Below, piece after piece: positions 7,070 through 32,000 of a stretch of 32,000 nt of DNA. The DNA comes from Dehalococcoidia bacterium. GTDB taxonomy: Bacteria > Chloroflexota > Dehalococcoidia > Lucifugimonadales > JAAXIE01. The stretch is taken from the NCBI GenBank assembly GCA_965263155.1, contig OZ253586.1:2499171-2531170 (forward strand), in the 5' to 3' direction. A program made the position numbers and the translations under genes. The notes below the pieces were generated by a model. It worked only from the letters and a program-made list of their open reading frames with translations. It ran no database searches and had not been told where the DNA came from. Each line of letters opens with the position of its first letter. Positions within the stretch are counted from its first letter, which is position 1.

Positions 7070-7223
7070 GTCGCCAGCGAGTGTACTTGGCACAACCCCT
7101 GCCCGCAACGAGAAAATGCGATGTCTGCGGACGTACCCCGGACCCGCTTAGTCTTCCAAGTCAGTCAATTGCCGCGTGGTCGGCTTGAAGCCCCAGCCCA
7201 CATTTGCTAAAGTAAGGCTCCAC

Positions 7224-7299: not shown

Positions 7300-7786
7300 A
7301 ACTGGGGCGAGTTGCGGTCGTCATCTGATATACTTCCGACTAGTAGGAGTATACCCAACGCCATGCCGGTATGCTCCGCACCAACTCAGTTGGAGTGTAG
7401 CGACATGTCGCTTCAGGCCATCTACTAGTAATTCTGATCGTCCTTCTTGGCTCGCTGGTTGCCGCCCGCCAGGGAACCTCGACGCAGGAGGCCCGAGATG
7501 GTCACGACGTGTTTCACTGAATGATTAGCGCCTTCCAGGACCCTGATATAATGCAGCAGGTGCACGATATACACCACGAAGTTCATTCCATTTTCGAGGC
7601 CGAAATCGCCAAGCTCAGCGGTCTCCAGAAGGTTTCTTCAACTGGAGGGAAAATGGACAGCGAGTTTGATGGCCAGGACCGGATGGCCCTGCGGGCTGCG
7701 TGGAAGTTGCAAGGGATACTGGCTCTTCGCCACCGCGGACGGGTACATCATCTCCATCCAATAATCACTATTTTGAAAGGGGGTTC

Positions 7787-8815
7787 GTGCAACTCCGCAA
7801 ACTATCCAAGGGGCTGAAGGCCTCGTACTATGGGTCGGAGGTCGCCAGTCGCGTGCAACACTTCAATGGATGGAGCGACAGAGCGCTTGCACGGGATGTC
7901 GGCGCGACAGGCTACGACCATACCGAAACCGTCAAGGAATACTACGACCTTTGCGGCGAGTTCATGTTGCTCTCCTGGGGCGAATCCCTGCACTTCGCGC
8001 CGCTATCGCCGCAGGAGAGCCTGGAGGACTCCAAGACCCGGCATCAGCGACTGATGATCGCCAAGCTGGAGTTGCGCGAGGGGATGAGGGTGGTCGATAT
8101 TGGTTGCGGGATCGGCGGGCCGATGCGGCGTGTCGTCCGGGACGCCGGTGTGAGGGTCGTAGGGGTCAACAGCAACGAAATCCAGATCGGCCATGCGAAA
8201 TCGTTGAACGCCGAGGCGGGGCTCGACCACATGGTCGGCTACGTTGCGTGCAGCTTCATGAACATGAGCGCCATCGCGGACGACACATTCGACCGCGGTT
8301 ACGCGATCGAATCGACGTGTCATGCGCCGGACAAGGCGGGCGCGTTCGCCGAGATTTACCGTGTGCTGAAACCCGGAGCCCTTTTCTGGGGGCAGGAAAT
8401 GTGCATGACGGACAAGTTCGATCCCAGTGACAATCGGCACCGGGCCATGAAGCAGCAACTGATGCGGGGCATCGCGCTCCAGGATATCGCAACGATGGGA
8501 GAGGTGAACCGGGCGGTCGAAACGGCGGGGTTTCAGATCATCGAGGGAATGGACCGGGCGGTGGAGGAGAACGGTCCGACCACGCCATGGTATCGGGCCA
8601 TAGAGACCCAGCAAAGAAGGCTGGCCACTGGCCTTCCGTTGGGCCGCAAGGCGCTCTTCGGGGCATCCAGGCTGGCCGAGGTGTTTGGGGTGTTCCCGAA
8701 GGGCTCGACGGGCGTCGTCAGGCTGCTGGACTTGGCGGCCAACGCCATTGTGGCGGGCGGCAGGGCCGGGATCTTCACGCCGTTGTACTGTTTCCTGGCT
8801 CGTAAACCTCTTTGA
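7787..8815 (+). CDS. Sterol 24-C-methyltransferase (ERG6/SMT1) family SAM-dependent methyltransferase
   Basis: Collinear by eye with yeast ERG6 over the whole length. Matches are WGESLHFAP (region I), VVDIGCGIGGP (SAM motif I, 8090-8122), YAIESTCHAP vs YAIEATCHAP (8300-8329), EIYRVLKPG, MTDKFDPSDNRHR vs MTDKYDENNPEHR, PWY, and the C-terminal AIVAGGRAGIFTPLYCFLARKP vs GLVAGGKSKLFTPMMLFVARKP. The ORF opens at 7700; I prefer the GTG at 7787, which lies 3 nt after GAAAGGGGG. Confidence 0.85.
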   Translation: MQLRKLSKGLKASYYGSEVASRVQHFNGWSDRALARDVGATGYDHTETVKEYYDLCGEFMLLSWGESLHFAPLSPQESLEDSKTRHQRLMIAKLELREGMRVVDIGCGIGGPMRRVVRDAGVRVVGVNSNEIQIGHAKSLNAEAGLDHMVGYVACSFMNMSAIADDTFDRGYAIESTCHAPDKAGAFAEIYRVLKPGALFWGQEMCMTDKFDPSDNRHRAMKQQLMRGIALQDIATMGEVNRAVETAGFQIIEGMDRAVEENGPTTPWYRAIETQQRRLATGLPLGRKALFGASRLAEVFGVFPKGSTGVVRLLDLAANAIVAGGRAGIFTPLYCFLARKPL

Positions 8816-18607: not shown

Positions 18608-20044
18608 CTAAGTTGAAGGAGGCAGGACCCAAGGTTTGGAGCGGATGCCTCTGTCTATCGTGACAAGGTTGACTGTCGGGTCGATGAGGCGGGTTGCCGG
18701 GCGGCCGTTGAAGGCGACGTGGACATCGGCACGGACTTCGACGTCGCGATGGCCACGGTTCGTGAGGTCATCTCGGATGATGTGGGCCGTTGCCAGCACC
18801 AAGTCGGGCTGGTATGCCATGCGCTCGACCTGTGTTGGCGTCAGGTATTCTTCCGGGTAGATGAGGCGCTCCCCGTCGGTGGCAGAGCTTTTCATGCGGA
18901 AACGCACGAGTCCTGTCTTCTCCGTGACCAGCACCCTCCACGAGAAACGATAGCCCTCTTCCGTCCATTGCACGTCTCCAGCGTAAGCCAAGTGTCGCAG
19001 GGGCACGAGCACTTGTACTACGAAGAACAAGGCAGCGAGCACGAGCGCAACCCGGACAGGCCACGCTGGAGGACATCCGTGAGACCCCGCTCGTCCTAAG
19101 AGAGGGGGCTCGGGTGGCAGGTGATGCGGTCCACGCAACCGGCTAGCTACACGAGCGGGCCAGTCAGAATCAAAGAAGATGAGGGCCGCCCCAATCATTA
19201 TCCAGGGGAACATGCCAATGGCAGGGAACAGCAGTGCCGTTGCCATGTGGAACAGCACCAGCACGCCATAGGCATAGGGGCGTGACCTGCGCCACAACAG
19301 CCACCCCACGATTGTCAGGTCGAAGAGGGCCCCAGCCCAACTCATCGCGTATGCAACCCACTGCTCGCGGACAAACGCGCCGACCAGATGTACGTCAGCG
19401 CTGTTATATAACCATATAGTCAGAGGCTGGGCGTCAAACAACCAATCGGGGTTCAACTTGGCAAGGCCAGCAAAGACGTACATCAAGCCCAATTGCGCCT
19501 GCAGCACCCACAATGTTGCCCGGGGAACCACCGGAGGGTGCACGTCAGCTGGGGTCTTACGCGAATCCAACGAGGCCACTCGCGCCATGGGCAGGAACGC
19601 CATGATGAGGCTGAGCAGACTCACCAAGTAGTAGTGATTGAGGTAGGTCGTTTGGTCAATCAGCTCCAAGTAGGTGAACAGCAGGAAGAAGGCAATGATA
19701 GACCGCCGGTAGCGGTACCCCAGCGCTACACCAAGGCTGGCCAGCCCAAGGAGGGCGAAATGGACGTACATCCCCCAAACGGGCCAAGGCTGCACCCATC
19801 CGAACCCGGCATAGCTGAAATGGTAGGTGGGCTCGAGGTACACCTCTGAGATCCAACCGTTGGCCACGAACCGCACCACAGCGATAAAGCCAAGCAGGCC
19901 GAAGATGACGCGGAAAGCGGCCAGCGAGGCTGGCGACACCGGCTGGCGTCCAGCTTGGATAAGCCGGTCGAGTGGGCTAGAGACTGCTGTTGGGGCACGT
20001 TGTGCAGAGGCTATTCGTGCAGCGGAAAGGGACGGCACTACCAT
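18608..20044 (-). CDS. Vitamin K-dependent gamma-glutamyl carboxylase (VKGC)-like protein with N-terminal HTTM domain
   Basis: SLAAFRVIFGLLGFIAVVRF...YRRSIIAFFLLFTYLELIDQTTYLNHYYLVSLLSLIMAFLP is the HTTM domain. VFAGLAKLNPDW aligns with human GGCX FFAGLKKLDADW, so the catalytic-base Lys is conserved (codon 19457-19459). The C-terminal GYRFSWRVLVTEKTG...VHVAFNGRP...LIDPTVNL parallels the GGCX lumenal region GYSWDMMVHS...WVSINDR...IFDPRVDI. Confidence 0.85.
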   Translation of the reverse strand: MVVPSLSAARIASAQRAPTAVSSPLDRLIQAGRQPVSPASLAAFRVIFGLLGFIAVVRFVANGWISEVYLEPTYHFSYAGFGWVQPWPVWGMYVHFALLGLASLGVALGYRYRRSIIAFFLLFTYLELIDQTTYLNHYYLVSLLSLIMAFLPMARVASLDSRKTPADVHPPVVPRATLWVLQAQLGLMYVFAGLAKLNPDWLFDAQPLTIWLYNSADVHLVGAFVREQWVAYAMSWAGALFDLTIVGWLLWRRSRPYAYGVLVLFHMATALLFPAIGMFPWIMIGAALIFFDSDWPARVASRLRGPHHLPPEPPLLGRAGSHGCPPAWPVRVALVLAALFFVVQVLVPLRHLAYAGDVQWTEEGYRFSWRVLVTEKTGLVRFRMKSSATDGERLIYPEEYLTPTQVERMAYQPDLVLATAHIIRDDLTNRGHRDVEVRADVHVAFNGRPATRLIDPTVNLVTIDRGIRSKPWVLPPST

Positions 20045-20053
20045 GGAAGCCAG

Positions 20054-21139
20054 CTAACGCAGGCTGTCGCCGTCAGTGTCGGTGAACCCCACCGACACGC
20101 CGAGAAGGCTCACCAACTCCGTCGCCATGGTGCGCTGCAACTCCGCGAGCCTGTCGTAGGCCTCGATCACCTGACTTGGCCTCTCAGCTATGGCAACACG
20201 TAGCTGCCCTTCTACCGCGTCGAGGGCCCCTATGGCGTCGGCGAGTTGCTCCCGCAGGCGCTGGTCGGTATCTTCCGACAGCGGGCGTACCAAGGCCGAG
20301 ATGCCCAAACTGTCCGAGCCAGCTCCTTCGTAGATGCGCTGCACGCCCTGCAGTTCGTTGCGCAGGTCTGCCAAGCCGTTGTCGGCAGCGGTGCCGGGGA
20401 TGGCCGATGGGTCGGCCCCGCCATCCCGCAGCCCCAACGCCGACGCCAAACGCATGTCGACGATATCCCGAATCAGGAAGACCTGAGTCCGCACCACCTC
20501 GGCCACTCCTTCGCTGGCTAGTAGCGCTACCTCCGACCGACCGGTCAGGTAGTCACGGTACGGTGGCCCTCCGTCACCCTCGACCCACGCCGATAGAATC
20601 GCGTCGGCCTCCTGACTTGCGACGGATGTGAGCGCGGACAAGAAGGCGCATCTTGGCGAGGGACCCTGAAGAGAAGCAGTCGCTTCTTTGTCGAATAAGA
20701 CATACTCCATGGCCCCGAACCCTCTCTGATTGGAGGCAAGCGCCTCGCGGATGTCAGTGGCCGTTGGCGCACGTCCTTGGGCCAACAGTCCCTCAATGCC
20801 GTCAATGTCAGTAGGCGACCAGTCCAGCAGGCTGCGGGAACGCCTCTCCATCACCGGCCCAAACCACATCGCCCCCGATGCCATCCAAGATGCGCGGGCG
20901 GCGTGCCACGCTTGTCGGGCCGCCTCCACGGATACGTCGTCAGGATTCTGGCATACGGACTGTGTGGCCTCATCCAGCCGGGCTATATCTTCAGCAACGG
21001 CTTGGAAGGCGGGGACGGCGACCTCGTCGGCGAGGCTGATCAAGACGTCGGCGTCCGAAGGGCCTCTCGGTCCACAAGCAGCAGACAGCAGCGCCAACGC
21101 AGCCAGAATCGGGGCCAGCGACGCTAGGACGGGCCTCAT
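20054..21139 (-). CDS. Imelysin-like lipoprotein (paralogue lacking the His of GxHxxE)
   Basis: Signal LALLSAAC|G. ARQAWHAARASWMASGAMWFGPV is imelysin-like. The motif position reads GFGAMEYVLFD (Gly instead of His). The ATG lies 1 nt after the upstream stop. Confidence 0.8.
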   Translation of the reverse strand: MRPVLASLAPILAALALLSAACGPRGPSDADVLISLADEVAVPAFQAVAEDIARLDEATQSVCQNPDDVSVEAARQAWHAARASWMASGAMWFGPVMERRSRSLLDWSPTDIDGIEGLLAQGRAPTATDIREALASNQRGFGAMEYVLFDKEATASLQGPSPRCAFLSALTSVASQEADAILSAWVEGDGGPPYRDYLTGRSEVALLASEGVAEVVRTQVFLIRDIVDMRLASALGLRDGGADPSAIPGTAADNGLADLRNELQGVQRIYEGAGSDSLGISALVRPLSEDTDQRLREQLADAIGALDAVEGQLRVAIAERPSQVIEAYDRLAELQRTMATELVSLLGVSVGFTDTDGDSLR

Positions 21140-21140
21140 G

Positions 21141-22559
21141 CTACAGCGACTCCAGGAATCTCAAGAGAGCCTCGCGCTTCTCGGCGGTAAGACCCATGAA
21201 GCGTTGGCGAGAGCCCTCGGCCTCGCCGCCGTGCCACAGAATGGCTTCTTCAAGGCTGCGAGCTCGTCCGTCATGCAGAAACATGGTGTGGCCGTTGACC
21301 GTTTCAACAAGGCCTATGCCCCACAGAGGCGGGGTGCGCCACTCTGTGCCCGAAGCTTGGCCGTCGGGCCGATGGTCCGCCAAGCTGGGACCCATGTCGT
21401 GCAGCAGCAGGTCGGTATAGGGGAAAATCGCCTGGTCCCTCAAGGGGGTCAGCGGGTGGGTATCTCCGGTCTCGTGCCTAGTAGTGTGGCACAGGGAGCA
21501 TTGAGACTGCACGAACAGGCGGGCGCCCTGTTGCACCGTCTTGTCTTCAGGGTCACGCATCGCCGGTACCGCCAAGGTCTGCACGTAGACGGTTACCTTG
21601 TCCAGCCTGCTGTCGGGTATTTCCGGCGCGCCCCCGTTGCGGGCTTGCCGGCACTCCTCTTGGCTGGACGGGCAATTCTCGTTCGGGAACAGGCTGGAGG
21701 TGATACCGATGTCTCCCAGAAAGGCTCCAGCCGACTGCTGCTCGACAGTAGGCTGATTTGCCTTCCACCCGAAGCGTCCGAGGGCCAACTCTCCCTTCCT
21801 GATGTCCCAGACGTAGTTGGGGCGACCGGATATACCGTCTCCGTTGGCGTCGTCGGGGTCGGCTTGGGCTAGAATGCTTGCTTCGGGAATGGCTTCCAGC
21901 AGCCCCATGCCGATGGTGGCGGGAGCGATACGCGGCGAGACCTGCACCTGCGAGTGCACCGGGCCGAAGGCTAGGTCGCCGATGCTGTAGGTAGGCTGCC
22001 TCAGGCTATATTCCGTGCCGTCGGGGTACTTGCCGGGTAATTCTTGGTAGCTGATAACAATGCGCCCTTCTACGGGCACACCCAAGACCGCGCGGTCCTG
22101 CAACTGCCCGCCGTAGCTAGGCTCGTCGATGGGGCCATCAAGCCCAGGTATGCTGAGGCGGAGAAGCAGGCCCCTTTCCGAGTCGTCTGGTCCGTCTGGT
22201 GGCTTGCCTCTGCCGTCGTGGCCGTGGCACGAGGAGCAGGATACGGCGTTGTGAGTGGGACCCAACCCGTCCCTAGCCTTGGTGCTGGCAGGGGCTGTCA
22301 CCCAGTTCTGAGTAAAGAAGCTGTCGCCTACCTCGAATACCCGGCGCAGTTCATTGTCCAAGTTACGCGCCGATAGCTCAAAGGCGTTGCCGCTTCGTGA
22401 GAAAGCCGTGGTGTCTCCCCCCAAGCGCACATCGTAGACCGTGCGCAGATCGATGTTATCGCCTCCACCGCAAGCCACGATGGCTAACAACACAACCGCT
22501 GGCAGCAGCGATGCCAGCGGTTGTGTCCATGGCCTGACCGTAAGATTGGAACGACGCAT
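21141..22559 (-). CDS. DUF1111 di-haem cytochrome c oxidoreductase/peroxidase-like lipoprotein
   Basis: Signal LLAIVAC|GGGD. FEVGDSFFTQNWVTAPASTKARDGLGPTHNAVSCSSCHGHDGRG and QSQCSLCHTTRH supply two CxxCH haem-binding sites in the DUF1111 pattern. Confidence 0.85.
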   Translation of the reverse strand: MRRSNLTVRPWTQPLASLLPAVVLLAIVACGGGDNIDLRTVYDVRLGGDTTAFSRSGNAFELSARNLDNELRRVFEVGDSFFTQNWVTAPASTKARDGLGPTHNAVSCSSCHGHDGRGKPPDGPDDSERGLLLRLSIPGLDGPIDEPSYGGQLQDRAVLGVPVEGRIVISYQELPGKYPDGTEYSLRQPTYSIGDLAFGPVHSQVQVSPRIAPATIGMGLLEAIPEASILAQADPDDANGDGISGRPNYVWDIRKGELALGRFGWKANQPTVEQQSAGAFLGDIGITSSLFPNENCPSSQEECRQARNGGAPEIPDSRLDKVTVYVQTLAVPAMRDPEDKTVQQGARLFVQSQCSLCHTTRHETGDTHPLTPLRDQAIFPYTDLLLHDMGPSLADHRPDGQASGTEWRTPPLWGIGLVETVNGHTMFLHDGRARSLEEAILWHGGEAEGSRQRFMGLTAEKREALLRFLESL

Positions 22560-22565
22560 GTAACC

Positions 22566-23732
22566 TTAGCTGACGTTTATGGTGATACCCACCTTTTGGG
22601 CCGCGACCACGATGGTATCGGTCTGGTTCTCCAGCGCAACGATTGTGTCGAGGACGGCCCGGCGTCCAGGGTCGCCATCCGCGCGCCCCTGCTTTAGCAG
22701 GTCGTCAAAGGGGGTGGGGATAGACTTGGCTAGTGACACTGAGCGGTTGATCTCGGCCTCCAACAAAGCCGCCAACTCCTCGTCCTCGGAAGCAATCAGG
22801 TCTCGTATGCCGGGGCCGGAAACATCGCCGTAGTCGCCCGAATAAACCCTCTTCACTCCTAGTGCGTTGGCAATGATATCAGCGTTGGTGTTGTCGGAAA
22901 AGCAGGAGTGCTCGTCTTCTTGCGACCGTTCCTCGTAGGCGACGGTCATACGCTCACCAGCCAACTCACCTCGGCTCATCTCGCCGATGCCGGTAATTAT
23001 GTCGGTGATGGCGTCATCCGAATCCTTGCCTACGAATTGGGAGCGGTAGTTGCTCTGGCCGGGGGCCCAAGCTTCCACCATATCTCGCAGGTGCCCGATC
23101 AGGACGTCGGACGCGACGGCGAGGTAGGCGCTGCGACGGTCGGCGTTGGAGTTAGCGGTGTAGTCTTCTACAGGACGGTAACCTGGCCCGTCGGGGTTGA
23201 GGTCCTGCCCCCAGAGCAGGAATTCGATAGCATGCCATCCAGTGGAGACATTCTCCTCTGCGCCTTCTTCATTGATGGAGACCAGCAGACCGGCATCAAT
23301 GGTCGGGAACTGATCGGGATTGTTGATGACCCCAGCACTGGCGTTGCCTTCCACGTAATCGATGTAGGACTCGTCCAAGGGCCAAGCGTTGACAAGCCCT
23401 TCGGGACCGTCTTCCTCATTGTCGATAGGGCCGTTGTAGAAGCGGTATATCTCGGTGACTCCATAGTCGTCTCTAGCGTAGAGCCAAGCCCGCTTGGCGG
23501 CGTCGAGCCTCGGCTGCGACGGGGCAGCGAGGAAATTGTCTATCGCAGCGTCCAGAGTTGTGGCAGAGTTCAGGCTCCTGACGTAGGAGGCGTGGGCTCC
23601 GGCCGCGTAATTCTCGACGACTGACGCCTTGAGTTCGTCGCTTGCACCACCCCCGTCGCCTGAGCAAGCCGCCAAGGCTAGACCCGATATAAGGACCGAC
23701 AGGACCAGCAGACCAAGTGTTCTCTTCCTCAT
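22566..23732 (-). CDS. Imelysin (peptidase M75 / IrpA / EfeM-like) lipoprotein
   Basis: MRKRTLGLLVLSVLISGLALAAC|SGDGG lipoprotein signal. The GxHxxE signature TGWHAIEFLLWGQD is present. The ORF opens at 23765; I prefer the ATG at 23732 (AAGGAG lies 13 nt upstream), but either start is possible. Confidence 0.85.
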   Translation of the reverse strand: MRKRTLGLLVLSVLISGLALAACSGDGGGASDELKASVVENYAAGAHASYVRSLNSATTLDAAIDNFLAAPSQPRLDAAKRAWLYARDDYGVTEIYRFYNGPIDNEEDGPEGLVNAWPLDESYIDYVEGNASAGVINNPDQFPTIDAGLLVSINEEGAEENVSTGWHAIEFLLWGQDLNPDGPGYRPVEDYTANSNADRRSAYLAVASDVLIGHLRDMVEAWAPGQSNYRSQFVGKDSDDAITDIITGIGEMSRGELAGERMTVAYEERSQEDEHSCFSDNTNADIIANALGVKRVYSGDYGDVSGPGIRDLIASEDEELAALLEAEINRSVSLAKSIPTPFDDLLKQGRADGDPGRRAVLDTIVALENQTDTIVVAAQKVGITINVS

Positions 23733-23807
23733 ATGCTTTCCAGTGCTCCTTATCGAAATCTGCATGTCTACAGTATACTCACCATGACAGTTAGTGTACT
23801 CATAGTA

Positions 23808-23835
23808 TTCACAGATGGTGAGTCGATGCTATATT
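23808..23835 (+). promoter_or_regulatory. Candidate sigma-70-type promoter for the lipoprotein/giant-protease genes
   Basis: TTCACA (23808-23813), a 16-nt spacer, then TATATT (23830-23835), inside the AT-rich divergent region. On the opposite strand a perfect TTGACA (complement of 23849-23854) faces the imelysin operon. Confidence 0.3.
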
Positions 23836-23858: not shown

Positions 23859-23981
23859 GCTTAGTATAACTACGCCCCAGCAGTAGGCAACTCCCATTGG
23901 AGGTGCCCGGAAAGCCGTTCTCCGCCCGTATGACAGGACGCGACGCGCAGGTGATAACATTGCTTAGGGTTGGTCCGTACC

Positions 23982-24017
23982 CCGACTCCGGGAGTCGGCT
24001 ATACCCAGATTCTGGGT
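23982..24017. promoter_or_regulatory. Two adjacent near-perfect palindromes in the leader of the lipoprotein gene
   Basis: CCGACTCC-G-GGAGTCGG (23982-23998) and ACCCAGA-T-TCTGGGT (24003-24017), 45-80 nt upstream of the ATG at 24062. Confidence 0.4.
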
Positions 24018-24061
24018 CAGATCACGTCCAACCTGGAAGGATGCAAAGTAGAGGTAGGAAC

Positions 24062-24979
24062 ATGAGAAGGCACTTAACGCGGATAGCCATCAGTGCGAGC
24101 CTGGTCCTACTGCTGGCCCTCAGCTTGATCCTCACTGGCTGTGGCGGTTCCCGCGATGAGGTTGAGACCACAGATGTGACGTCCAGTACACCCACGAAGG
24201 TTTCCCCAGCCCAAACACCTACCTCCGAAAGTCTGGTGAACGAGGCCCCTACTGCGCCCATACCCGCATTTCCTCCATCCGAATCCTCTCCAGAGGCCTC
24301 ATATAGCCCGCAAGCGGCTTTCCCAGACGCGACACCCAGCCAAGCTGTCACCGTTCCCAGCGCCAAGGCTTCTGGGACGAGCGAAGAGCCAGTGTTGACG
24401 GAAAAGGCCCCCTTGGCTCAAATCGCAATTGTGCCCGCCTTCAACCCCCAAGACGAGCCTCCCGGTCAGGGCTTGGCGGCCCGTGACTCCGAGCCGAAGG
24501 GCATCCCCGACTCCAGGCAGCCCGTGCAGGGTACGCCCTACACTTGGCAGGACGGAGACAGGACCTTGAGTGTGCACCTGCAGGAGGACTTGGTCGTCGA
24601 AGGGGACGGCAGCAACTCAGCTGCAAACATTGTGCGAGCCCAGCCGGGAGGCAGTAGCATCGTGGCTAAGGGGGACGGCTACGTCCCCAGCAACGATGAC
24701 CTTCCGGTCTTTCGCTCCCCGTCGGGTTCGTTGATGACCTTGCCAGGTGGAGTCCTACTGGCCCTGAACGAACAATGGACTCAAGCGCAGACCAACTCAT
24801 TCTTTGCCGACAACGGCATAAAGATGGACCGAGTTTCGGAGTTGGGCTACATCACCAACGGTTTCTTCATTACAACAGACCCAGGGTTTCCCTCGCTGAA
24901 TCTGGCCAACGAGCTGGCGGCCTTTGATGGGGTGGAGGTTTCCAGCCCCAACTGGTGGAGTGAGGCAGTGACGCGGTGA
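24062..24979 (+). CDS. Lipoprotein with P/S/T/E-rich linker and a C-terminal propeptide-like (beta-alpha-beta-beta-alpha-beta) domain
   Basis: MRRHLTRIAISASLVLLLALSLILTGC|GGSRDE lipobox, with GAGGT upstream of the ATG at 24062. A low-complexity linker (about 110 aa) follows. The C-terminal part ends in ...NLANELAAFDGVEVSSPNWW. The TTG at 23897 that opens the ORF is rejected as the start. Confidence 0.75.
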   Translation: MRRHLTRIAISASLVLLLALSLILTGCGGSRDEVETTDVTSSTPTKVSPAQTPTSESLVNEAPTAPIPAFPPSESSPEASYSPQAAFPDATPSQAVTVPSAKASGTSEEPVLTEKAPLAQIAIVPAFNPQDEPPGQGLAARDSEPKGIPDSRQPVQGTPYTWQDGDRTLSVHLQEDLVVEGDGSNSAANIVRAQPGGSSIVAKGDGYVPSNDDLPVFRSPSGSLMTLPGGVLLALNEQWTQAQTNSFFADNGIKMDRVSELGYITNGFFITTDPGFPSLNLANELAAFDGVEVSSPNWWSEAVTR

Positions 24980-25039
24980 CGCGACGATGCCGGTCCATCC
25001 CATCTCACCGGAACTAAGCTTGCTTGACCGATTGACCCG

Positions 25040-28000
25040 ATGACCGGGGTACTGCGCTTGCCAAGAAAGCTTTTGTCCGCAGGCATCGTTTGGGCTCTAC
25101 TCTTGCTGTTGCTGGCCTCAGGTGACGCTCGGGCCCAGAGCGTGCTCGCAGCGCCCACCATCGATTCGGTCACTGCGGGCGACAGCCTGCTTACCGTTGC
25201 TTGGACGGCCCCTACGGGCGAGTCGGGCATCATCGCCTACGACTTGCGTTACATCCAGACCTCCGCTGCGGACAAAGCCGACGACAAGTGGAGCATATCG
25301 CAGGACGTTTGGGCCACGGGTGCCGGGGATCTACAGTACCGCATCCTCCCATTGGAAAACGTTGGCTACGATGTGCAGGTGCGAGCCATAAGGGGAAGCA
25401 CCGACGGCATGTGGTCGCCTACCTTCATTGGCACGCCTACTGATCATGGAGACAGCCGTGGAGGAGCCACAGAGCTGGCCCTGAACGCGTCAGTCGTTGG
25501 CTACATCGACTCAACCAGCGATGACGACTACTTCAGCATCACGCTGTCGGAGGAGTCCGGCGTCTTCATCTATACCACCAGCTACATCACCGGGTTTCTT
25601 GCGACGACCGGGGAACTCCAGAACAGCGTCGGTACGACGATCAAGTCCGACGACAACGACTCCCTGTTCAGGCAGCACGGGCAGCAACTCTTTCTATGGG
25701 ACACGCTATCCGCTGGGACCTACTTCGTCAAAGTCGAAGCCTCTGAGACGGGGTATTACACCCTGCACACGCAGACCGTCCCCGATGGGAGCAGTAAGGA
25801 TGAGGCGGTCGATGTGAGCCTCAACGGCTTTGCCAACGGGATCTTGGACCCAGCGGCAAGCGATAAGGACTGGTTTAAGGTCGAGATCTCCCAGACCACG
25901 GACTTGATGCTCCGGGTGACCCGCGCCAATTCAGGAGTAGATACCGAAGGGACGTTATTTGACAGCGACGAAAAGGAGATCGCCGTCCACGATGACAGCT
26001 TCCTTGAAGGTGATTTGCGCTGGCAGTTCATCATCCGCGAGAAGCTGGACGCCGGGGTGTATTACCTCAAGGTCAGGAGTTCCCCCGGAGGGTCCTATCG
26101 CAGTTGTGACGAAGATGCGAAGTGCTCCGAGGAGATCTCCAAGAGCGCCGCGACTGACCCCGGACCCTACATGATGCACGCCGAGGCCGTGACGGCTCCC
26201 GGCAGTTCCACCGGCTCGGCCCGTGCCCTCACTTTAGGCCAGAACGAGGTGGCGGGCGGAAGAATAGACCGGGCCAACGATACGGACTATTTCAAGATAA
26301 CCGTGAGTGAGACTACCCATGTCCGTGTGCGGGTCGCAAGTGCGACTCTCGAGACCGACGTGGCGCTGCTAGACACCAGTCGCCGCGAGGTTGGCACGCT
26401 CCAGTCAGAAAGCGATTACGTTCCTGGGAGACTCGGAGGCCTTCTCTACGGCACCCTCAAGACGGGTACCAGCTACATCAATGTGACTGCCGAAGACCGC
26501 AAGGAGACGGGGGCGTATGCCATAGTGGTGTACGAAGACACGCTGTATGCGGGATTCTTGGACCGCTGCAGCGCCATCTCAGCCAACTACAGCGACCCCC
26601 TTTATGGGTGTCAATGGCACCTGAACAACACGGGCCAGAACAGCGGGGCTGGCGCGGGCACCGAGGGCGAGGATATCAATGTGGAGGAAGTGTGGGACGC
26701 TGGCAACCTTGGCGAGGGCATCAATGTCGCAATAGTCGACAACGGCTTGTACTACGAGCACGAGGACCTGACTGCCAATGTCAATCGCTCACGCAACTAT
26801 GACTACACTGGGGAGGGCGACGTATTCGAGCGCTACCTCACCCATGGTACCCGTATAGCCGGCATCATTGCTGCCCGTGACAACAGTATCGGCGTCCGTG
26901 GAGTGGCGCCGCGGGCCACGGTGTACGCCTACAACTGGATTCGCAATCCGACTTTCGCCAACCTCGGCGATGCGATGACCCGCAATATGTCCGACACTGG
27001 TGTGTCCAACAACAGCTGGGGTCCCCTAGCGTCTCCCAGACCGGCCCGTGTCCCCAGCCTCTGGGAGCTAGCGGTGGATGCTGGCGTCTCCAAGGGCTTT
27101 GGTGGCAAGGGGGTCTTCTACGTCTTCTCGGCGGGCAACGGGGGGCGAAGCAGTACGGGGGACTACTCGAACCTCAACGAGTACGCCAACTACTACGCCG
27201 TGACCGCGGCCTGCGCAACCGACAACTTGGGAGAGAGGGCCGCCTTTTCTGAGGAAGGTCCCAATCTTTGGGTCTGTGCTCCATCAGAGGGCGACGGGCG
27301 TCAAGGCATAACCACCACCCAGAACTACAACCGCTATGACGGGTCTACCGGGGGCACCTCATCGGCCGCTGCCATCGTGTCGGGTGTGGCTGCCTTGGTG
27401 CGCAAGGCTAATCCCAACCTTACTTGGCGGGACGTGAAGCTGGTCCTGGCAGGTTCCGCCCGCAAAAACGACTCCACTAATTCCGGCTGGGAGACGGGTG
27501 CCACTAAGTACGACTCTACCACCGACACTGACACCTATAACTACAACCACGAATACGGCTTTGGTGTAGTCTACGCCAAGGCGGCGGTGGACTTGGCCGA
27601 AGGCTGGACCTTGCTGCCTCCCATGAGGGAGGTCACCGGAGGTACCGTCGACGACCTTGACCTGAGCATTCCCAACACCAACTCGGCCGTCCCTAGCGCT
27701 GTGACCGTCGGGGCTGGAGTCGACTTCATTGAGTTCGTGGAGGTCAACGGTGTTTTCGACCACCTGTCCTTCCGAGACCTGAGGGTGGAGTTGGTGTCAC
27801 CTTCCAACAAGACATCCGTGCTGAGTGTACCCTTCACCTCTGACGAGAATTATCCCTTGACCACCAGTTTCCGTTTCGGCTCCGCACGTCATTTGGGAGA
27901 GAGCGCGACAGGCACTTGGACTCTACGCCTTACCGATACAGAATCTGGCAGTGAAGGCTCCCTCCTCTCCTGGAGCCTTACCGTTTATGGCCATTCAGAC

Positions 28001-31000
28001 CCCTTGGCAGCCCCGACCGCCACCTCGGTCACTCCCGGCAGTAGTTCCCTCACTGTCGCTTGGGACGTCCCAGACGGAGCAACGGGCATCACCGCCTATG
28101 ACGTGCGCCACATCGCCAGCGATGCCACAGACAAGGCCGATGACCAGTGGACCGTGATCTATGACGCATGGGCATCCGGGTCCACCAGCCTGCAGTACAC
28201 CATCACCAGCCTCACTGATGGGACTGGCTACGACGTACAGGTGCGGGCGGTGAAGGCGGGCGTGGATGGTGATTGGTCGGATACGGTCGTGGGTACATCG
28301 GGAACCTCGGCGGCCACGGTACCGACCATCGGCTCTGTGCGCCCCGACGACAAGGCCATCCTCGTGTCCTGGTCTGCTCCCACCAGTACCACGTACACCG
28401 TCACGGCCTACGATGTACGCTATATCCGCAACGATGCCACCAGCAGGACGGATAGCGATTGGAAGGTGGAGGACGACGCGTGGACCACCGAAGACGGTGA
28501 CCTGTGGTACGCCATCACTGAATTGGACAACGGGGTGATGTATGACGTGCAGGTGCGGGCCGTCACAACCAGTGACGGAGATTGGTCACCGCCTTTTAGC
28601 ACGAGCCCCTCTGACTATGGCGGAAGCTTGGACACGGCAACAACTCTTGTGCTGGAAACTACTTCTTCAGGGCGGATTGCCCCACTTGGCCACAACCGTT
28701 ACTGGGGTGAGCTGGAAGATGGAGGCGACACCGACTATTTCAAGTTCGAGCTCACTTCCACACAGGTTGGAACCGGTGCCGGGTTCTGGCTGTACACCAC
28801 AGGCGACTTGGACACTGTGGGCAACCTGCTCGATAGCAACGGTCTGCTTATCGAGGCCAATGACGATGGCAGGGTGTTGCCGAACCCAAGGGACTTCTTC
28901 ATGTGGCGCACCATGACAGCAGGTACGTACTACCTCAAGGTCAGCGGCTACGAAGGCGCCCAAGGGCCCTACACTCTCAGGCTGCGAACATTCACCGACA
29001 CTAGTAGTCGGAGCAATGCGGTCGAACTACCCTTGGACGGCTCAGCAAGAGGCATGCTGGACCCTGAGGGTGACGAGGACTACTTCAAGCTAGTAGTGCC
29101 CTCGGACGACACCGAGGTGGTTCTTCGTAGCAGCGGCTTTTTCGATTCGGTAGGCGAGTTGCAGAACAACTCCGGCCGCTCCTTGGAGGTGAACGACGAT
29201 GGTTACCTTACAGGTGGTCTGGTTCGCCAGTTTCTAATACGCACGGAACTCGACACCGGCACCTACTACCTCAAAGTCAGAGGTTTCGACAGCATCATCG
29301 ACGAGAACATCGGCCCCTTCAGCGTCTACGCCACAACGGTGACGAAGCCCGGCAGCGACACCGCTAATGCCCAGGCCCTGACCCTCGGCCGTCCCGCTGG
29401 AGGCAGCATAGACCCAGCGGGAGACGTGCACTACTTCAGCATTACCCTCTCGGATCAAACCTATGTGTACATACGGGCGGTAAGCGAAGACCTTGACGTG
29501 GACGGCGCACTGCTGGACAGCAGCAACAACGCCGTCACCCCGGCCTCGGACCAAGACGGCAGTGGTAACGTAGGCTTCACCATCCGACACCGCCTCGATG
29601 CTGGCACCTACTACATCAAGGTCACTGCCGATAGTGGCGCCGACACCGGGAGTTACACCATCATGGTTATCGAAGAGACCGTCTTCAGTAGGCTGGTCGA
29701 CGAATGCACCGAGATCGACAGAAATGCCGGCATCAATGACCCTCTATACGGCTGCCAGTGGCACCTCAACAACGATGGGCAGTTCCGCGGCGGGGCTAGG
29801 CAGGACATTAACGTAGAGGACGCGTGGTCCAGCAGCTACAACGGGACAGGAATCAACGTAGCTGTGGTGGACGATGGGATGCACTACGCCCACGAGGACC
29901 TGATGCCCAACGCAAACACAGCTCTGAACCACGACTACACTGGCAACAGTGAGATATACGATCCCCTCGAAACCCACGGCACGGCCGTGGCCGGCATCAT
30001 TGCGGCCCGGGACAACGACAAAGGAATGCGTGGGGTAGCCCCTAGGGCCACCATCTACGGCTACAACCTTCTCATTAGCAACGAGGACAAGGACGAAGGT
30101 GACGCCATGTCGCGGAACGCGAGTGTAACCGCGATCTCCAACAACAGTTGGGGCCCTGGGGACTCCGGAGCGCCAGAAGCCACGAACACTTTCTGGACTG
30201 CAGGGGTCCAAACAGGGATCACCGATGGCTTCGGGGGGAAAGGCACTTTCTATGTCTGGGCAGCTGGCAACGGAGGCCGCTGGGGCGACTATTCCGGCCT
30301 AGACGAATACGCCAACTACTACGCCGTGACAGCGGCTTGCGCCGTCAACCACCTCGATGTCCGGAGCAGCTACTCCGAGCCGGGCTCCAACCTGTGGGTT
30401 TGCGCCCCCTCAAATAACGGGGGTCTATCTAGTCTGCCCGGCATTGCCACTACGGACAACGGGAACCGTTACAGGGATGACTTCGGCGGCACCAGCGCCG
30501 CTGCTCCCATCGTTTCAGGCGTAGCTGCCTTGGTGCGTGACGCCAACGAAAACCTGACATGGCGTGATGTGAAGCTGATCCTAGCTGCGTCCGCCCGCAA
30601 GAACGACCCAACTGATTCTGGATGGGAGGAAGGCGCCCCGAAGTATGGCTCCACCACGGACCGCTACAACTTCAACCACGAGTACGGCTTTGGCATGGTG
30701 GACGCCAAAGCAGCAGTAGACTTGTCAAACGGCTGGGCCAATGTCCCAACCTTTCGGAATATGAGCGCCGAGTCCGGCAGAATTAACCTCACCATCCCTG
30801 ACGCCACATCTACCCTGCCGGGCGCTAGGGTGACCAGCACACTGACGCTCCAGCCATTCGTGGGGTTCGTCGAGTACATCGAAGTGAAGGCCCACTTTGC
30901 CCACACCTCTTTCCGGGACCTGGACGTGGAACTGGTTTCCCCCACGGGCGCAGTCTCCAAGCTGGTCCCCCACTACGAAGCCCCACCCGAAGGCCGACGG

Positions 31001-32000
31001 ATGTGGGATTCCGAATTTCGCTTCGGCTCGGCCCGGCACCTCGGCGAGGACGCAGCCGGTGTCTGGGCACTTCGGATTGCCGACCACATCGCGTCGGATC
31101 GGGGCACCCTCAAGTCGTGGGAAATCACTGCCTACGGCCATGGCTACGTGCCCACTAGGCCCGATATCGATGAAGTGACCCCTGGCCAAGGCACGCTGAC
31201 CGTCACCTGGAAAGAGCCGGACGACGCGGGAAGCTCCTCGGTTACGCGGTACGACCTCAGGCACATTCGCAGCGATACCACCGACAAGTCGGACGACCAA
31301 TGGACTGTCGTTGAAGACGTGGGCATCCCCGGAAGTGCCCTCAGCAACAACATTTCAGACCTCCAAGGTGGCGTGGACTACGATATTCAGTTGCGGGCGG
31401 TGAACAGCAGAGGCCCCGGCCCGTGGTCGGCCAGCTGGAAAACGCAATACGACATTGTGGCCCCCTTAAAGCCTTTCATAACTTCCATCACCCCAGGCGA
31501 CCGAGCGCTCGCCGTCACTTGGAGCGCGCCCACCGACACCGGTGGTGAGGATCCTACTTCCTACGACGTACGCCACATCGAGACGAGCGCCACCGACAAG
31601 ACTGACGACGAGTGGACTGTCGTCGGCAGAGCTTGGATCAGCGGCGACCTGCGATACACCATCACCGGTCTCACCAACGGCACGGAATACGATGTACAGG
31701 TGCGAGCTGTCAACTCAGGAGGCAATGGCACCCGGTCTGACACTATGACGGGCACGCCTGAGCAGGCCCACACGCCGGTCACCCTGTCGGTTGAACAGCC
31801 GACGGTCTCCGTCAGCGAAGATGGAGGGAGCGCCACAGTTACCGTGTTCCTCACGACAACTGTGGCCCACGCACCGCGCTCCGACTTCTCCGTAGATATC
31901 AGGGTGACAGTAACCGACCGCTACGAGACCCAGTCTACTGACTATGGGGACCCTTCGGAGTCGACCCTCAGCTTCGAGGCCACCGATTTCGCCCAGACCA
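25040..32000 (+). CDS. Giant secreted multidomain protein with two furin/kexin-type (S8B) proprotein-convertase units; 3' end outside the window
   Basis: In-frame TGA at 25025-25027, ATG at 25040, then no stop up to nt 32000 (2320 codons). It is absent from the supplied track because no stop closes it in the window. All listed ORFs in this span are in other frames or antisense. The Sec signal is MTGVLRLPRKLLSAGIVWALLLLLLASGDARA|QS. Domains are listed in the following features. Confidence 0.9.
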   Translation, partial: MTGVLRLPRKLLSAGIVWALLLLLLASGDARAQSVLAAPTIDSVTAGDSLLTVAWTAPTGESGIIAYDLRYIQTSAADKADDKWSISQDVWATGAGDLQYRILPLENVGYDVQVRAIRGSTDGMWSPTFIGTPTDHGDSRGGATELALNASVVGYIDSTSDDDYFSITLSEESGVFIYTTSYITGFLATTGELQNSVGTTIKSDDNDSLFRQHGQQLFLWDTLSAGTYFVKVEASETGYYTLHTQTVPDGSSKDEAVDVSLNGFANGILDPAASDKDWFKVEISQTTDLMLRVTRANSGVDTEGTLFDSDEKEIAVHDDSFLEGDLRWQFIIREKLDAGVYYLKVRSSPGGSYRSCDEDAKCSEEISKSAATDPGPYMMHAEAVTAPGSSTGSARALTLGQNEVAGGRIDRANDTDYFKITVSETTHVRVRVASATLETDVALLDTSRREVGTLQSESDYVPGRLGGLLYGTLKTGTSYINVTAEDRKETGAYAIVVYEDTLYAGFLDRCSAISANYSDPLYGCQWHLNNTGQNSGAGAGTEGEDINVEEVWDAGNLGEGINVAIVDNGLYYEHEDLTANVNRSRNYDYTGEGDVFERYLTHGTRIAGIIAARDNSIGVRGVAPRATVYAYNWIRNPTFANLGDAMTRNMSDTGVSNNSWGPLASPRPARVPSLWELAVDAGVSKGFGGKGVFYVFSAGNGGRSSTGDYSNLNEYANYYAVTAACATDNLGERAAFSEEGPNLWVCAPSEGDGRQGITTTQNYNRYDGSTGGTSSAAAIVSGVAALVRKANPNLTWRDVKLVLAGSARKNDSTNSGWETGATKYDSTTDTDTYNYNHEYGFGVVYAKAAVDLAEGWTLLPPMREVTGGTVDDLDLSIPNTNSAVPSAVTVGAGVDFIEFVEVNGVFDHLSFRDLRVELVSPSNKTSVLSVPFTSDENYPLTTSFRFGSARHLGESATGTWTLRLTDTESGSEGSLLSWSLTVYGHSDPLAAPTATSVTPGSSSLTVAWDVPDGATGITAYDVRHIASDATDKADDQWTVIYDAWASGSTSLQYTITSLTDGTGYDVQVRAVKAGVDGDWSDTVVGTSGTSAATVPTIGSVRPDDKAILVSWSAPTSTTYTVTAYDVRYIRNDATSRTDSDWKVEDDAWTTEDGDLWYAITELDNGVMYDVQVRAVTTSDGDWSPPFSTSPSDYGGSLDTATTLVLETTSSGRIAPLGHNRYWGELEDGGDTDYFKFELTSTQVGTGAGFWLYTTGDLDTVGNLLDSNGLLIEANDDGRVLPNPRDFFMWRTMTAGTYYLKVSGYEGAQGPYTLRLRTFTDTSSRSNAVELPLDGSARGMLDPEGDEDYFKLVVPSDDTEVVLRSSGFFDSVGELQNNSGRSLEVNDDGYLTGGLVRQFLIRTELDTGTYYLKVRGFDSIIDENIGPFSVYATTVTKPGSDTANAQALTLGRPAGGSIDPAGDVHYFSITLSDQTYVYIRAVSEDLDVDGALLDSSNNAVTPASDQDGSGNVGFTIRHRLDAGTYYIKVTADSGADTGSYTIMVIEETVFSRLVDECTEIDRNAGINDPLYGCQWHLNNDGQFRGGARQDINVEDAWSSSYNGTGINVAVVDDGMHYAHEDLMPNANTALNHDYTGNSEIYDPLETHGTAVAGIIAARDNDKGMRGVAPRATIYGYNLLISNEDKDEGDAMSRNASVTAISNNSWGPGDSGAPEATNTFWTAGVQTGITDGFGGKGTFYVWAAGNGGRWGDYSGLDEYANYYAVTAACAVNHLDVRSSYSEPGSNLWVCAPSNNGGLSSLPGIATTDNGNRYRDDFGGTSAAAPIVSGVAALVRDANENLTWRDVKLILAASARKNDPTDSGWEEGAPKYGSTTDRYNFNHEYGFGMVDAKAAVDLSNGWANVPTFRNMSAESGRINLTIPDATSTLPGARVTSTLTLQPFVGFVEYIEVKAHFAHTSFRDLDVELVSPTGAVSKLVPHYEAPPEGRRMWDSEFRFGSARHLGEDAAGVWALRIADHIASDRGTLKSWEITAYGHGYVPTRPDIDEVTPGQGTLTVTWKEPDDAGSSSVTRYDLRHIRSDTTDKSDDQWTVVEDVGIPGSALSNNISDLQGGVDYDIQLRAVNSRGPGPWSASWKTQYDIVAPLKPFITSITPGDRALAVTWSAPTDTGGEDPTSYDVRHIETSATDKTDDEWTVVGRAWISGDLRYTITGLTNGTEYDVQVRAVNSGGNGTRSDTMTGTPEQAHTPVTLSVEQPTVSVSEDGGSATVTVFLTTTVAHAPRSDFSVDIRVTVTDRYETQSTDYGDPSESTLSFEATDFAQT
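25148..25440 (+). other. FN3 domain 1 (approximate bounds)
   Basis: APTIDSVTAGDSLLTVAWTAP...IIAYDLRYI...W...LQYRILPLENVGYDVQVRAIRGSTDGMWSP. Confidence 0.7.
25441..26540 (+). other. Three PPC (bacterial pre-peptidase C-terminal)-like domains, set 1 (approximate bounds)
   Basis: Each unit has the pattern G.I....D.DYF.I.. (DDDYFSITL, DKDWFKVEI, DTDYFKITV), then D..G.L.D, then GTY(F/Y/I).V, then Y.(L/I).V. Confidence 0.65.
26594..27607 (+). other. S8B (kexin/furin-like) catalytic domain 1
   Basis: DPLYGCQWHLNN. Asp in VAIVDNG (codon 26738), His in THGTRIAGIIAA (26843), NNSWGP, SAGNGG...EYANYYAVTAACA, Ser in GGTSSAAAIVSG (27359). Confidence 0.85.
27608..27994 (+). other. Proprotein-convertase P domain 1
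   Basis: FIEFVEVNGVFDHLSFRDLRVELVSPSNKTSVL...FRFGSARHLGESATGTWTLRLTDTESGSEGSLLSWSLTVYGH parallels the furin P domain (...DLAIHLVSP.G..S.L...GEW.L.I.......G.L..F.L.LYG). Confidence 0.8.
28001..28608 (+). other. FN3 domains 2 and 3 (approximate bounds)
   Basis: SLTVAWDVP...ITAYDVRHIASDATDKADDQW...GYDVQVRAV and ILVSWSAP...VTAYDVRYIRNDATSRTDSDW...MYDVQVRAV. Confidence 0.7.
28609..29680 (+). other. Three PPC-like domains, set 2 (approximate bounds)
   Basis: DTDYFKFEL...GTYYLKVSGY...YTLRL; DEDYFKLVV...GTYYLKVRGF; DVHYFSITL...GTYYIKVTAD...YTIMV. Confidence 0.65.
29738..30736 (+). other. S8B (kexin/furin-like) catalytic domain 2
   Basis: DPLYGCQWHLNN. Asp in VAVVDDG (29870), His in THGTAVAGIIAA (29975), NNSWGP, AAGNGG...EYANYYAVTAACA, Ser in GGTSAAAPIVSG (30494). 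Confidence 0.85.
30737..31141 (+). other. Proprotein-convertase P domain 2
   Basis: FVEYIEVKAHFAHTSFRDLDVELVSPTGAVSKL...FRFGSARHLGEDAAGVWALRIADHIASDRGTLKSWEITAYGH. Confidence 0.8.
31142..31750 (+). other. FN3 domains 4 and 5 (approximate bounds)
   Basis: TLTVTWKEP...VTRYDLRHIRSDTTDKSDDQW...DYDIQLRAV and ALAVTWSAP...PTSYDVRHIETSATDKTDDEW...EYDVQVRAV. Confidence 0.7.
31771..32000 (+). other. Start of a Calx-beta-like domain (truncated by the window end)
   Basis: VTLSVEQPTVSVSEDGGSATVTVFLT......TQSTDYGDPSESTLSFEATDFAQT resembles the Calx-beta pattern (V.V.E..G.A.V.V....... ...DY......L.F..G). Confidence 0.45.

Follow-up and report, generated by a model that had tools for sequence, protein, structure and literature searches.

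The 32,000-nucleotide (nt) stretch of a Dehalococcoidia bacterium genome analysed here (contig OZ253586.1, positions 2,499,171 to 2,531,170; this whole stretch is referred to below as the window) runs at its right end into a giant gene, the predicted product of which carries two kexin-type serine protease units, each an S8 catalytic domain followed by a P domain, within a single polypeptide chain. Directly upstream lies a conserved gene for a predicted lipoprotein, which a preliminary description of the same DNA had missed. The explanation that accounts best for the whole set of observations, and to which a probability of about 0.6 is given here, is that the locus encodes a two-module, matrix-bound kexin-type protease with a second specificity, together with a lipoprotein that would act on it in trans in a propeptide-like manner; what the protein would do at the host interface, and the proposed action of the partner as a trans propeptide, are put forward as hypotheses.

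Two kexin-type modules in one reading frame

The last stop in frame 2 of the + strand occurs at 25025, and the frame is open from 25028 to the window end (32000), giving 6960 nt without a stop; the first ATG is at 25040, 2320 codons lie within the window, and the gene continues past 32000. Judged by the length of its close relatives, the full gene would have about 3400 codons. The 91%-identical orthologue P0002 (3396 amino acids, aa) continues after the part corresponding to the window with five Calx-beta domains, a DUF11 domain, an FN3 domain and two cadherin domains. The N-terminus resembles a signal peptide on inspection, in keeping with the secretion proposed in the preliminary description, and the protein is very acidic (isoelectric point (pI) 4.4). 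No membrane anchor was found in the C-terminal part of the intact orthologue, and the giant protein appears to be without an anchor of its own.

Pfam searches of the frame called Peptidase_S8 (PF00082) twice (E 2.5e-76, 257 bits, with a cut-off of 21.8) and P_proprotein (PF01483) twice (E 5.4e-34, 116.6 bits, with a cut-off of 21), besides several fn3 domains and PPC, while Calx-beta was found in the orthologue P0002. The preliminary reading of two S8B catalytic domains, each with its own P domain, was thereby borne out at both positions, as was the wider domain composition anticipated there. No NCBIfam family scored above its cut-off, the best sub-threshold one being mycosin (195 bits versus a cut-off of 279), and since all of these matches were sub-threshold, no named bacterial family applies. 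The codons of the catalytic residues were located exactly where they had been read before, and both triads are intact: Asp567 (26738), His602 (26843) and Ser774 (27359), with oxyanion Asn700, in unit 1, and Asp1611 (29870), His1646 (29975) and Ser1819 (30494), with Asn1744, in unit 2. Between the units, the triad codons are offset by 3132, 3132 and 3135 nt, and all six peptides previously quoted as identical between the copies occur once per unit.

In searches against the PDB, unit 2 matched Kex2 (2e-56) and then furin, versus 6e-18 for the best subtilisin, and unit 1 likewise matched Kex2 (2.5e-42) and then furin, versus 5e-22 for the best subtilisin. For both units, the Kex2/furin alignments spanned the catalytic and P domains end to end, and the next-best match after kexin and furin was the bacterial protease ASP. 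With the P domain located directly C-terminal to the catalytic domain, and with a sequence nearer to kexin/furin than to S8A enzymes, both units can be assigned, as far as sequence allows, to the kexin/furin type (S8B).

The units were mapped onto Kex2 numbering, in which we take D277 and D325 to have the S1 role and D320 and E350 the Ca-site role, as in the known Kex2 and furin structures. Unit 2 carries acids at all four positions, namely D1708 (Kex2 D277), D1750 (D320), D1755 (D325) and a Glu (E350), and keeps the DDG motif. In unit 1 of the window protein, D277 is replaced by Ala, D325 by Asn and D176 by Asn, which gives DNG, not DDG.

A lipoprotein gene conserved upstream of the protease gene

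The mechanical call of the partner open reading frame (ORF) extends from a TTG at 23897 to 24979. When read from the ATG at 24062, the product begins with MRRHLTRIAISASLVLLLALSLILTGC..., followed by the lipobox LILTGC, a Pro/Ser/Thr-rich linker and, at nt 24521-24976, a conserved C-terminal domain of ~150 aa with ...SSPNWWSEAVTR immediately before the stop. A spacer of 60 nt on the same strand separates the partner stop from the protease start; no terminator-like site was found between the two genes, and a promoter-like site is located at 23808-23835, upstream of the partner. This C-terminal domain is encoded directly upstream of the protease gene in ~70 of 77 loci, single-unit loci and other phyla included, and the lipobox Cys is at least 90% conserved, which marks the partner as a predicted lipoprotein. 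The family comprises at least 760 members (899 in the 50% library) and is unnamed, with no Pfam domain.

In most loci, the partner ends with the tail ...SSPNWW-x-E-x-x-x-K/R before the stop, and in 62 of 68 partner-protease pairs it terminates in K/R. A basic tail was accompanied by an acidic residue at S1 position 277 in 51 of these 62 cases, versus 2 of 6 for the other tails (Fisher p = 0.019, uncorrected for phylogeny and with loci that are not independent), so that this association is suggestive only. Two independent AlphaFold2 (AF2) models of the partner domain contain a beta-alpha-beta-beta-alpha-beta subdomain followed by a disordered tail, with a local predicted local distance difference test score (pLDDT) of 73-92. 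Subtilase propeptides have this topology, but so do many ferredoxin-like domains of other kinds. Additionally, the partner domain is fused N-terminally to PPC-S8-P proteases in six distant 50%-identity cluster representatives; in these fusions it stands N-terminal to PPC, S8 was detected in the four sequences long enough and the P domain in three, and the fusion junction still has K/R in 5 of 6 cases (e.g., ...WWREIEAR directly followed by QDPGE...).

S8B kexins are Ca2+-dependent enzymes that cut behind paired basic residues, and they have an N-terminal cis propeptide, which is removed autocatalytically after a basic site. No I9 or S8_pro-domain match was obtained with Pfam for the giant protein, and PPC domains directly precede both of its catalytic domains. 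Because of the precedent of the ASP-ORF2 pair, by analogy with which the argument proceeds, the partner may be encoded in trans to act, in the manner of a propeptide, as chaperone, inhibitor and anchor.

Several observations weigh against this reading of the partner. Some loci combine a K/R tail with a non-acidic S1, and others an E/Q tail with an acidic S1. The overall pLDDT of the partner model is just 55, and Foldseek returned weak generic ferredoxin-like matches for it (RRM, HMA, S6; E > 0.02). Neither one sequence nor 65 members of the family matched Pfam at E <= 10; comparison by hhalign with proprotein convertase and subtilisin propeptides (approximate query sequences) gave a probability <= 3%; and the partner-family profile had no match among PDB sequences at E <= 10, ORF2 (3WQB chain B) included. 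Moreover, at least three PPC domains stand between the partner and the catalytic domain in the natural fusions, unlike in classical propeptides. When a natural fusion (P0271 residues 126-1286) was modelled by AF2, the S8 part, onto which the partner would dock, came out unfolded (pLDDT ~30), probably owing to a poor mixed alignment.

The competing account is that the partner is not propeptide-like at all, being instead an anchor or adaptor at the membrane, a substrate of the protease or its immunity-type inhibitor, while folding of S8 would be provided by the P domain or the flanking PPC domains. The lipobox and the long disordered stalk would suit an anchor, the giant protein has none of its own, and no sequence or significant fold match links the partner to known propeptides or to ORF2, so this account deserves to be taken seriously, even though we hold it to be the less probable one. 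Against it stand the K/R found as the last residue in ~90% of loci and kept at the fusion junctions, the position of the partner domain N-terminal to the protease in the fusions, and the predicted beta-alpha-beta-beta-alpha-beta topology with its disordered tail; furthermore, no other propeptide candidate is present in the window protein or P0002 according to Pfam.

One chain or a cleaved precursor

A further alternative is that the giant protein is a polyprotein precursor, which would be cut between the modules after export into two independent proteases and adhesin fragments, as CspB/CspA are. Clostridial CspBA is indeed processed at the inter-subtilase junction (PMC3567191), the modules of the giant protein are separated by flexible FN3 linkers, and single-unit proteins make up most of the paralogues in the same genomes. 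Against this stand the dibasic sites, of which the 2320 aa contain 7 versus ~12 expected, with none at the module boundary or in the linker between P domain 1 and FN3; by this count, no conserved dibasic or other obvious cleavage motif was found at the module boundary. The tandem fusion has, in addition, remained intact across deep divergence, down to 44% identity. Cleavage of this kind is accordingly considered rather improbable, and it would in any case be compatible with the explanation preferred here.

Unequal conservation of the two units

Residue conservation was counted over 31 tandem proteins. In unit 2, the triad D175/H213/S385 is present in 31/31 and N314 in 30/31; position 277 is acidic in all (30 D, 1 E), as is position 325 (27 D, 4 E), and D320 and E350 are also kept, these four residues being conserved in 27-31 of the 31 proteins. 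Because the triad, the oxyanion Asn and the S1 acids typical of Kex2/furin are retained family-wide, unit 2 is the canonical enzyme and should cleave after Lys/Arg. In unit 1, D277 is kept in 7/31 and D325 in 3/31, whereas Ser has been lost in 12/31 (replaced by Gly, Ala or Phe) and His in 5/31. So, the preliminary statement that both copies had been kept holds for the clade of the window protein and fails elsewhere, where unit 1 seems to have decayed repeatedly to a pseudoprotease.

In the window protein and its closest orthologues, Asp, His, the oxyanion Asn and Ser of unit 1 are all intact. The ratio of nonsynonymous to synonymous divergence (dN/dS), calculated versus four orthologues, was 0.11-0.16 for the unit 1 catalytic domain and 0.10-0.19 for unit 2, values that indicate equally strong purifying selection on both units in this clade. 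Unit 1 has a rebuilt, non-acidic S1 pocket and probably provides a second active site, one that would prefer a different, non-basic residue at P1. Since it keeps its triad and is under purifying selection in this clade, the dual specificity raised in the preliminary description is plausible for the window protein, unit 1 having replaced the S1 acids that unit 2 keeps.

The absence of catalytic residues from unit 1 in ~40% of the tandem proteins tells against a second active site: because catalytic loss is so frequent, even a unit 1 with a surviving triad may have a role other than catalysis. In that case, the pseudoprotease reading would extend to the window protein: unit 1 would be a scaffold serving unit 2 in substrate binding, regulation or folding, with the triad as a leftover and a single specificity for the whole protein. 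The losses of Ser and His listed above, which never affect unit 2, and the disappearance of the S1 acids from unit 1 of the window protein would fit this view, and CspBA provides an example of a tandem subtilase half working as a pseudoprotease (PMC3567191). The intact catalytic residues of unit 1 in the window protein and the closest orthologues, and a dN/dS as low as that of unit 2, make a purely scaffolding unit 1 unlikely in this clade, with the reservation that a binding module would be constrained as well.

Duplication and reality of the tandem frame

BLAST comparison of the protein halves aligned aa 34-1000 with aa 1090-2049 at 46% identity over 1001 columns, which bears out the duplication of a whole module noted previously and shows that the repeated module of ~1000 aa is wider than S8 + P, being composed of FN3, three PPC-like domains (found by motif scan in each module), S8 and P. 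In array 1, the paired motifs DxDYF ... GxYYxKV of these domains are located at aa 161/226, 275/339 and 414/476. At the DNA level, the two modules are alignable in the catalytic domains only (65% identity over 920 nt; longest shared word 23 nt). Because the DNA of the copies is only 65% identical, the duplication is old, as had been proposed, and is not a duplication made in assembly; a recent duplication was rejected as well. When 151 S8 + P units were placed in a neighbour-joining tree (rooted on Kex2, without bootstrap values), all unit-1 sequences formed one clade, while unit-2 sequences grouped with most single-unit paralogues; this pattern fits one old duplication, after which the N-terminal copy would have diverged.

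That the tandem frame might be an artefact of assembly or gene calling, with two adjacent single-unit genes misjoined, could be entertained on account of the abundance of single-unit paralogues, several per genome, but its probability is negligible and it was rejected, given a continuous frame of 6960 nt, the recurrence of the same architecture at the same positions in 31 proteins of independent assemblies, complete chromosomes included, the low DNA identity of the copies and the absence of a second signal peptide. The frame is not split by any stop or frameshift, and the syntenic relative L078 has the same gene intact, with 3396 aa.

Note that the synonymous divergence (dS) between the giant gene and its 91%-identical orthologue (window 25040-31999 versus L078 10001-17000) is strongly mosaic along the gene: 0.65 in FN3-a, 0.46 in S8-1, 0.10 in S8-2 and 0.007 in FN3 d,e. 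This mosaic points to recombination or gene conversion within the gene, involving either strains or paralogues.

Binding domains, relatives and habitat

The PPC-like domains of a homologue were modelled confidently by AF2, though the S8 part of the same model was unfolded. They matched the collagen-binding domains of ColG (5iku, E 7.6e-08; 2o8o, 1nqd and 5sv5 also matched), with a TM-score on target of 0.76-0.78 and a root-mean-square deviation of 2.5-2.8 Å. A phmmer search of the PPC array versus the PDB gave no match, and the structural match was obtained only through the model of the homologue. Together with FN3, Calx-beta and cadherin domains, the PPC domains suggest, on the strength of this modelling, binding to a matrix or to cell surfaces.

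The giant protein has 435 relatives at E <= 1e-10, none of them named and the best 93% identical, and 443 stretches in species-representative genomes encode such relatives. Among the best 120 cluster representatives, 33 carry a pair of S8 units at conserved positions and 86 a single S8, and the tandem architecture is present in at least 31 protein clusters. Tandem loci account for 15 of the 78 loci fetched, the syntenic L078 included, which corresponds to at least 14 species-level Dehalococcoidia genomes with closed chromosomes among them. The best 77 loci belong nearly all to metagenome-assembled genomes (MAGs) named 'Dehalococcoidia bacterium', many of which are complete chromosomes, and a few to four or five other lineages (Ca. 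Spongiisociaceae, Ca. Poriferisodalis, Binatia, Ca. Multivorans and Acidimicrobiia), some of which bear names of sponge symbionts. A sponge habitat is read from these organism names only, and every sequence comes from uncultured MAGs, both of which count against the explanation.

Several genomes have more than one copy of the protease relatives. The protease and partner pair is multi-copy in single genomes such as OZ244559, CBDHDD01 and OZ252245; two partner-like ORFs or two protease genes occur at some loci (L018, L073 and L077 among the loci noted); and LRR, cadherin or other adhesion domains have been added in some paralogues. Such multi-copy, domain-varied paralogues point to a rapidly diversifying family. 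The C-termini differ as well: the distant tandem orthologues P0008 and P0012 carry a dockerin/EF-hand-like motif (YDxxNNxxIDRDEVxAAxGDYF...LYFAG), instead of which the closest tandem orthologues have a Trp/Leu-rich tail (...LLVWLRNVLTLWLDRACA).

Proposed mechanism and significance

In the explanation favoured here, an ancient internal duplication gave rise to two modules, in each of which FN3 and three collagen-binding-domain-like PPC domains precede a kexin-type S8 + P unit, and the FN3, PPC, Calx-beta and cadherin domains would hold the enzyme on the host extracellular matrix or on cell surfaces. The upstream lipoprotein would supply, in trans, a propeptide-like domain of ferredoxin-like topology, the C-terminal Lys/Arg of which may sit in the S1 pocket of the kexin-like unit. 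The partner could thereby aid the folding of the protease, hold it in an inhibited state and keep it attached to the membrane until its release.

A broader proposal, which is tentative and on balance doubtful, is that of a two-gene 'split zymogen' widespread in sponge-associated bacteria belonging to several phyla. The separate lipoprotein would correspond to a pre-cleaved propeptide ending at a P1 Lys/Arg, and would fold, block and tether a matrix-binding protease; in the tandem branch, a second site would have been retooled; and host extracellular-matrix or surface proteins would be processed in the way that the convertases of the host process them.

Kexin/furin-type convertases are the enzymes by which animals mature secreted proteins. 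The relatives described here form a large, undescribed family of bacterial convertase look-alikes with matrix- and cell-adhesion domains, and they are candidates for the cutting, or the mimicked cutting, of host proteins by symbionts. Moreover, the tandem proteins provide a natural series of active/active versus pseudo/active lineages, in which retooling or decay of a duplicated protease domain can be followed. If the trans propeptide proves true, it would represent a new way in which subtilase folding and latency are achieved, and would suggest a ready-made scaffold for specific inhibitors.

Organization of the locus and other genes of the window

The features of the partner-protease locus are collected in Table 1.

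Table 1 Coordinates of the partner gene and of the predicted domains of the giant protein within the window
Feature	Position	Strand	Basis
Partner lipoprotein gene (predicted)	24062..24979	+	Conserved upstream of protease gene; ATG 24062 inferred
Start codon and putative signal peptide (MTGVLRLPRKLLSAGIVWALLLLLLASGDARAQ)	25040..25138	+	Translation; N-terminus conserved among orthologues
FN3 domain a	25139..25438	+	Pfam fn3; YDVQVRA motif at aa 110
Array 1, three PPC / collagen-binding-domain-like beta-sandwiches	25439..26581	+	Motifs; Pfam PPC in window protein and P0002
Catalytic unit 1 (S8, kexin-type)	26582..27619	+	Pfam, triad mapping, Kex2/furin alignment
P domain 1	27620..28009	+	Pfam P_proprotein aa 898-981; Kex2/furin P-domain alignment reaches domain end
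FN3 domains b and c (inter-module linker region)	28010..28615	+	Pfam fn3; motifs at aa 1064, 1168
Array 2, three PPC / collagen-binding-domain-like domains	28616..29719	+	Pfam PPC aa 1462-1530, E 1.9e-06; motifs
Catalytic unit 2 (S8, kexin-type)	29720..30754	+	Pfam, triad mapping, Kex2 alignment
P domain 2	30755..31147	+	Pfam P_proprotein, second stretch; Kex2 alignment to ...WEITAYGH
FN3 domains d and e	31148..31774	+	Pfam fn3, best stretch aa 2152-2237; motifs at aa 2114, 2217
First Calx-beta-like domain, beginning only	31775..32000	+	Layout of orthologue P0002

The neighbours in the window are ordinary chromosomal genes, namely those for an Lhr helicase, a luciferase-like monooxygenase, solute-binding proteins and an RNase D-like protein, and a cluster of HTTM, imelysin, di-haem peroxidase and imelysin genes. 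The last is a four-gene cluster at 18608-23765 on the - strand, located divergently and directly upstream of the partner and protease genes, and coding for an imelysin, a di-haem oxidoreductase (DHOR), a second imelysin and an HTTM / vitamin-K-carboxylase-lumenal-domain protein; its order is the same in the close relative L078. At 2714-7108 (-), a 1464-aa Lhr-type helicase with an AlkZ-like glycosylase region is encoded, an ordinary gene unrelated to the tandem protease. The ORF at 7700-8815 (+) carries S-adenosylmethionine-methyltransferase domains, a Sterol_MT_C domain (55 bits with a cut-off of 21.7) and a CMAS match, which mark it as sterol-methyltransferase-like, here in the genome of a Dehalococcoidia bacterium. 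Sterol methyltransferases of bacterial symbionts of sponges have a bearing on the sponge sterol biomarker debate.

Comparison with known systems

The preliminary description had regarded kexin-like enzymes with P domains as eukaryotic processing proteases. This view is too narrow, since Subt-P_proprotein architectures have been listed in prokaryotes since 2008 (PMC2605481), and ASP of Aeromonas sobria, a propeptide-less kexin-like S8 + P protease, has been characterized, for the folding of which the product of the adjacent gene, ORF2, is needed (PMC13492141). Its further suggestion, that no bacterial protein with two such units in tandem had been characterized, stands to the extent that no paper on tandem kexin units was found; it has to be qualified by the tandem subtilase CspBA, which has been characterized and is not kexin-type (PMC3567191). 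The architecture itself proved to be common in uncultured Dehalococcoidia genomes, while no paper describing it was found. In the literature searched, neither tandem kexin + P modules with their asymmetric evolution nor the large family in uncultured genomes and the upstream lipoprotein ending in Lys/Arg were found described; no paper linked the eukaryotic-like domains of sponge symbionts to kexin-type proteases, and nothing relevant was found on sponge-symbiont convertases or tandem kexin units.

The closest likeness is to Kex2 (1OT5, 1R64, 2ID4) and furin (1P8J) of the MEROPS subfamily S8B, with which the units share the end-to-end alignment of the catalytic and P domains, the DDG / HGT / GTSAAAP motifs and the oxyanion Asn, and unit 2 also the S1 and Ca-site acids. 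The giant protein differs from them in having no N-terminal cis propeptide, in having two units per chain and in the loss of the S1 acids from unit 1, and the S2 acids D210/D211 are mostly not conserved in its units. Its context is that of an extracellular bacterial protein with PPC, FN3, Calx-beta and cadherin domains, in place of a transmembrane segment, a cytoplasmic tail and a Cys-rich region.

The pair ASP/ORF2 (3HJR, 3WQB) resembles the present system in being a bacterial kexin-like S8 + P protease without a propeptide and with an adjacent partner gene. However, the partner here is a predicted lipoprotein encoded upstream, whereas ORF2 is encoded downstream, and no similarity between the two is detectable; ASP is, in addition, a single unit without PPC/FN3 arrays.

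Clostridial CspBA is a tandem subtilase fusion that is cut at the inter-subtilase junction and the CspA half of which is without a triad in C. difficile (PMC3567191). It resembles the giant protein only in architecture, with two S8 domains per chain, one of which tends to lose its triad. Csp proteins are not kexin-type, have a jellyroll insertion in place of a P domain and a cis prodomain, and act in spores on SleC, and the degenerating unit of the Dehalococcoidia tandem is the N-terminal one. The jellyroll insertion and the cis prodomain of Csp being absent, the giant protein does not belong to the Csp family.

As regards the binding arrays, the PPC-like domains superpose on the collagen-binding domains of ColG (5IKU, 2O8O, 1NQD), and Pfam finds PPC in the window protein. 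The difference is that here these domains are N-terminal to a serine protease and number three per module, and collagen binding is predicted only. An enrichment of the fn3, cadherin, Calx-beta and LRR classes has been reported for sponge symbionts (PMC11706023), the eukaryotic-like domain proteins of which share their domain classes with the giant protein; relatives of the latter occur in Ca. Poriferisodalis, Ca. Spongiisociaceae and many Dehalococcoidia MAGs. The protein is thus best described as a combination of known kinds: a kexin-like S8 + P protease of the sort represented by ASP, a decay-prone tandem subtilase as in CspBA, and matrix-binding arrays.

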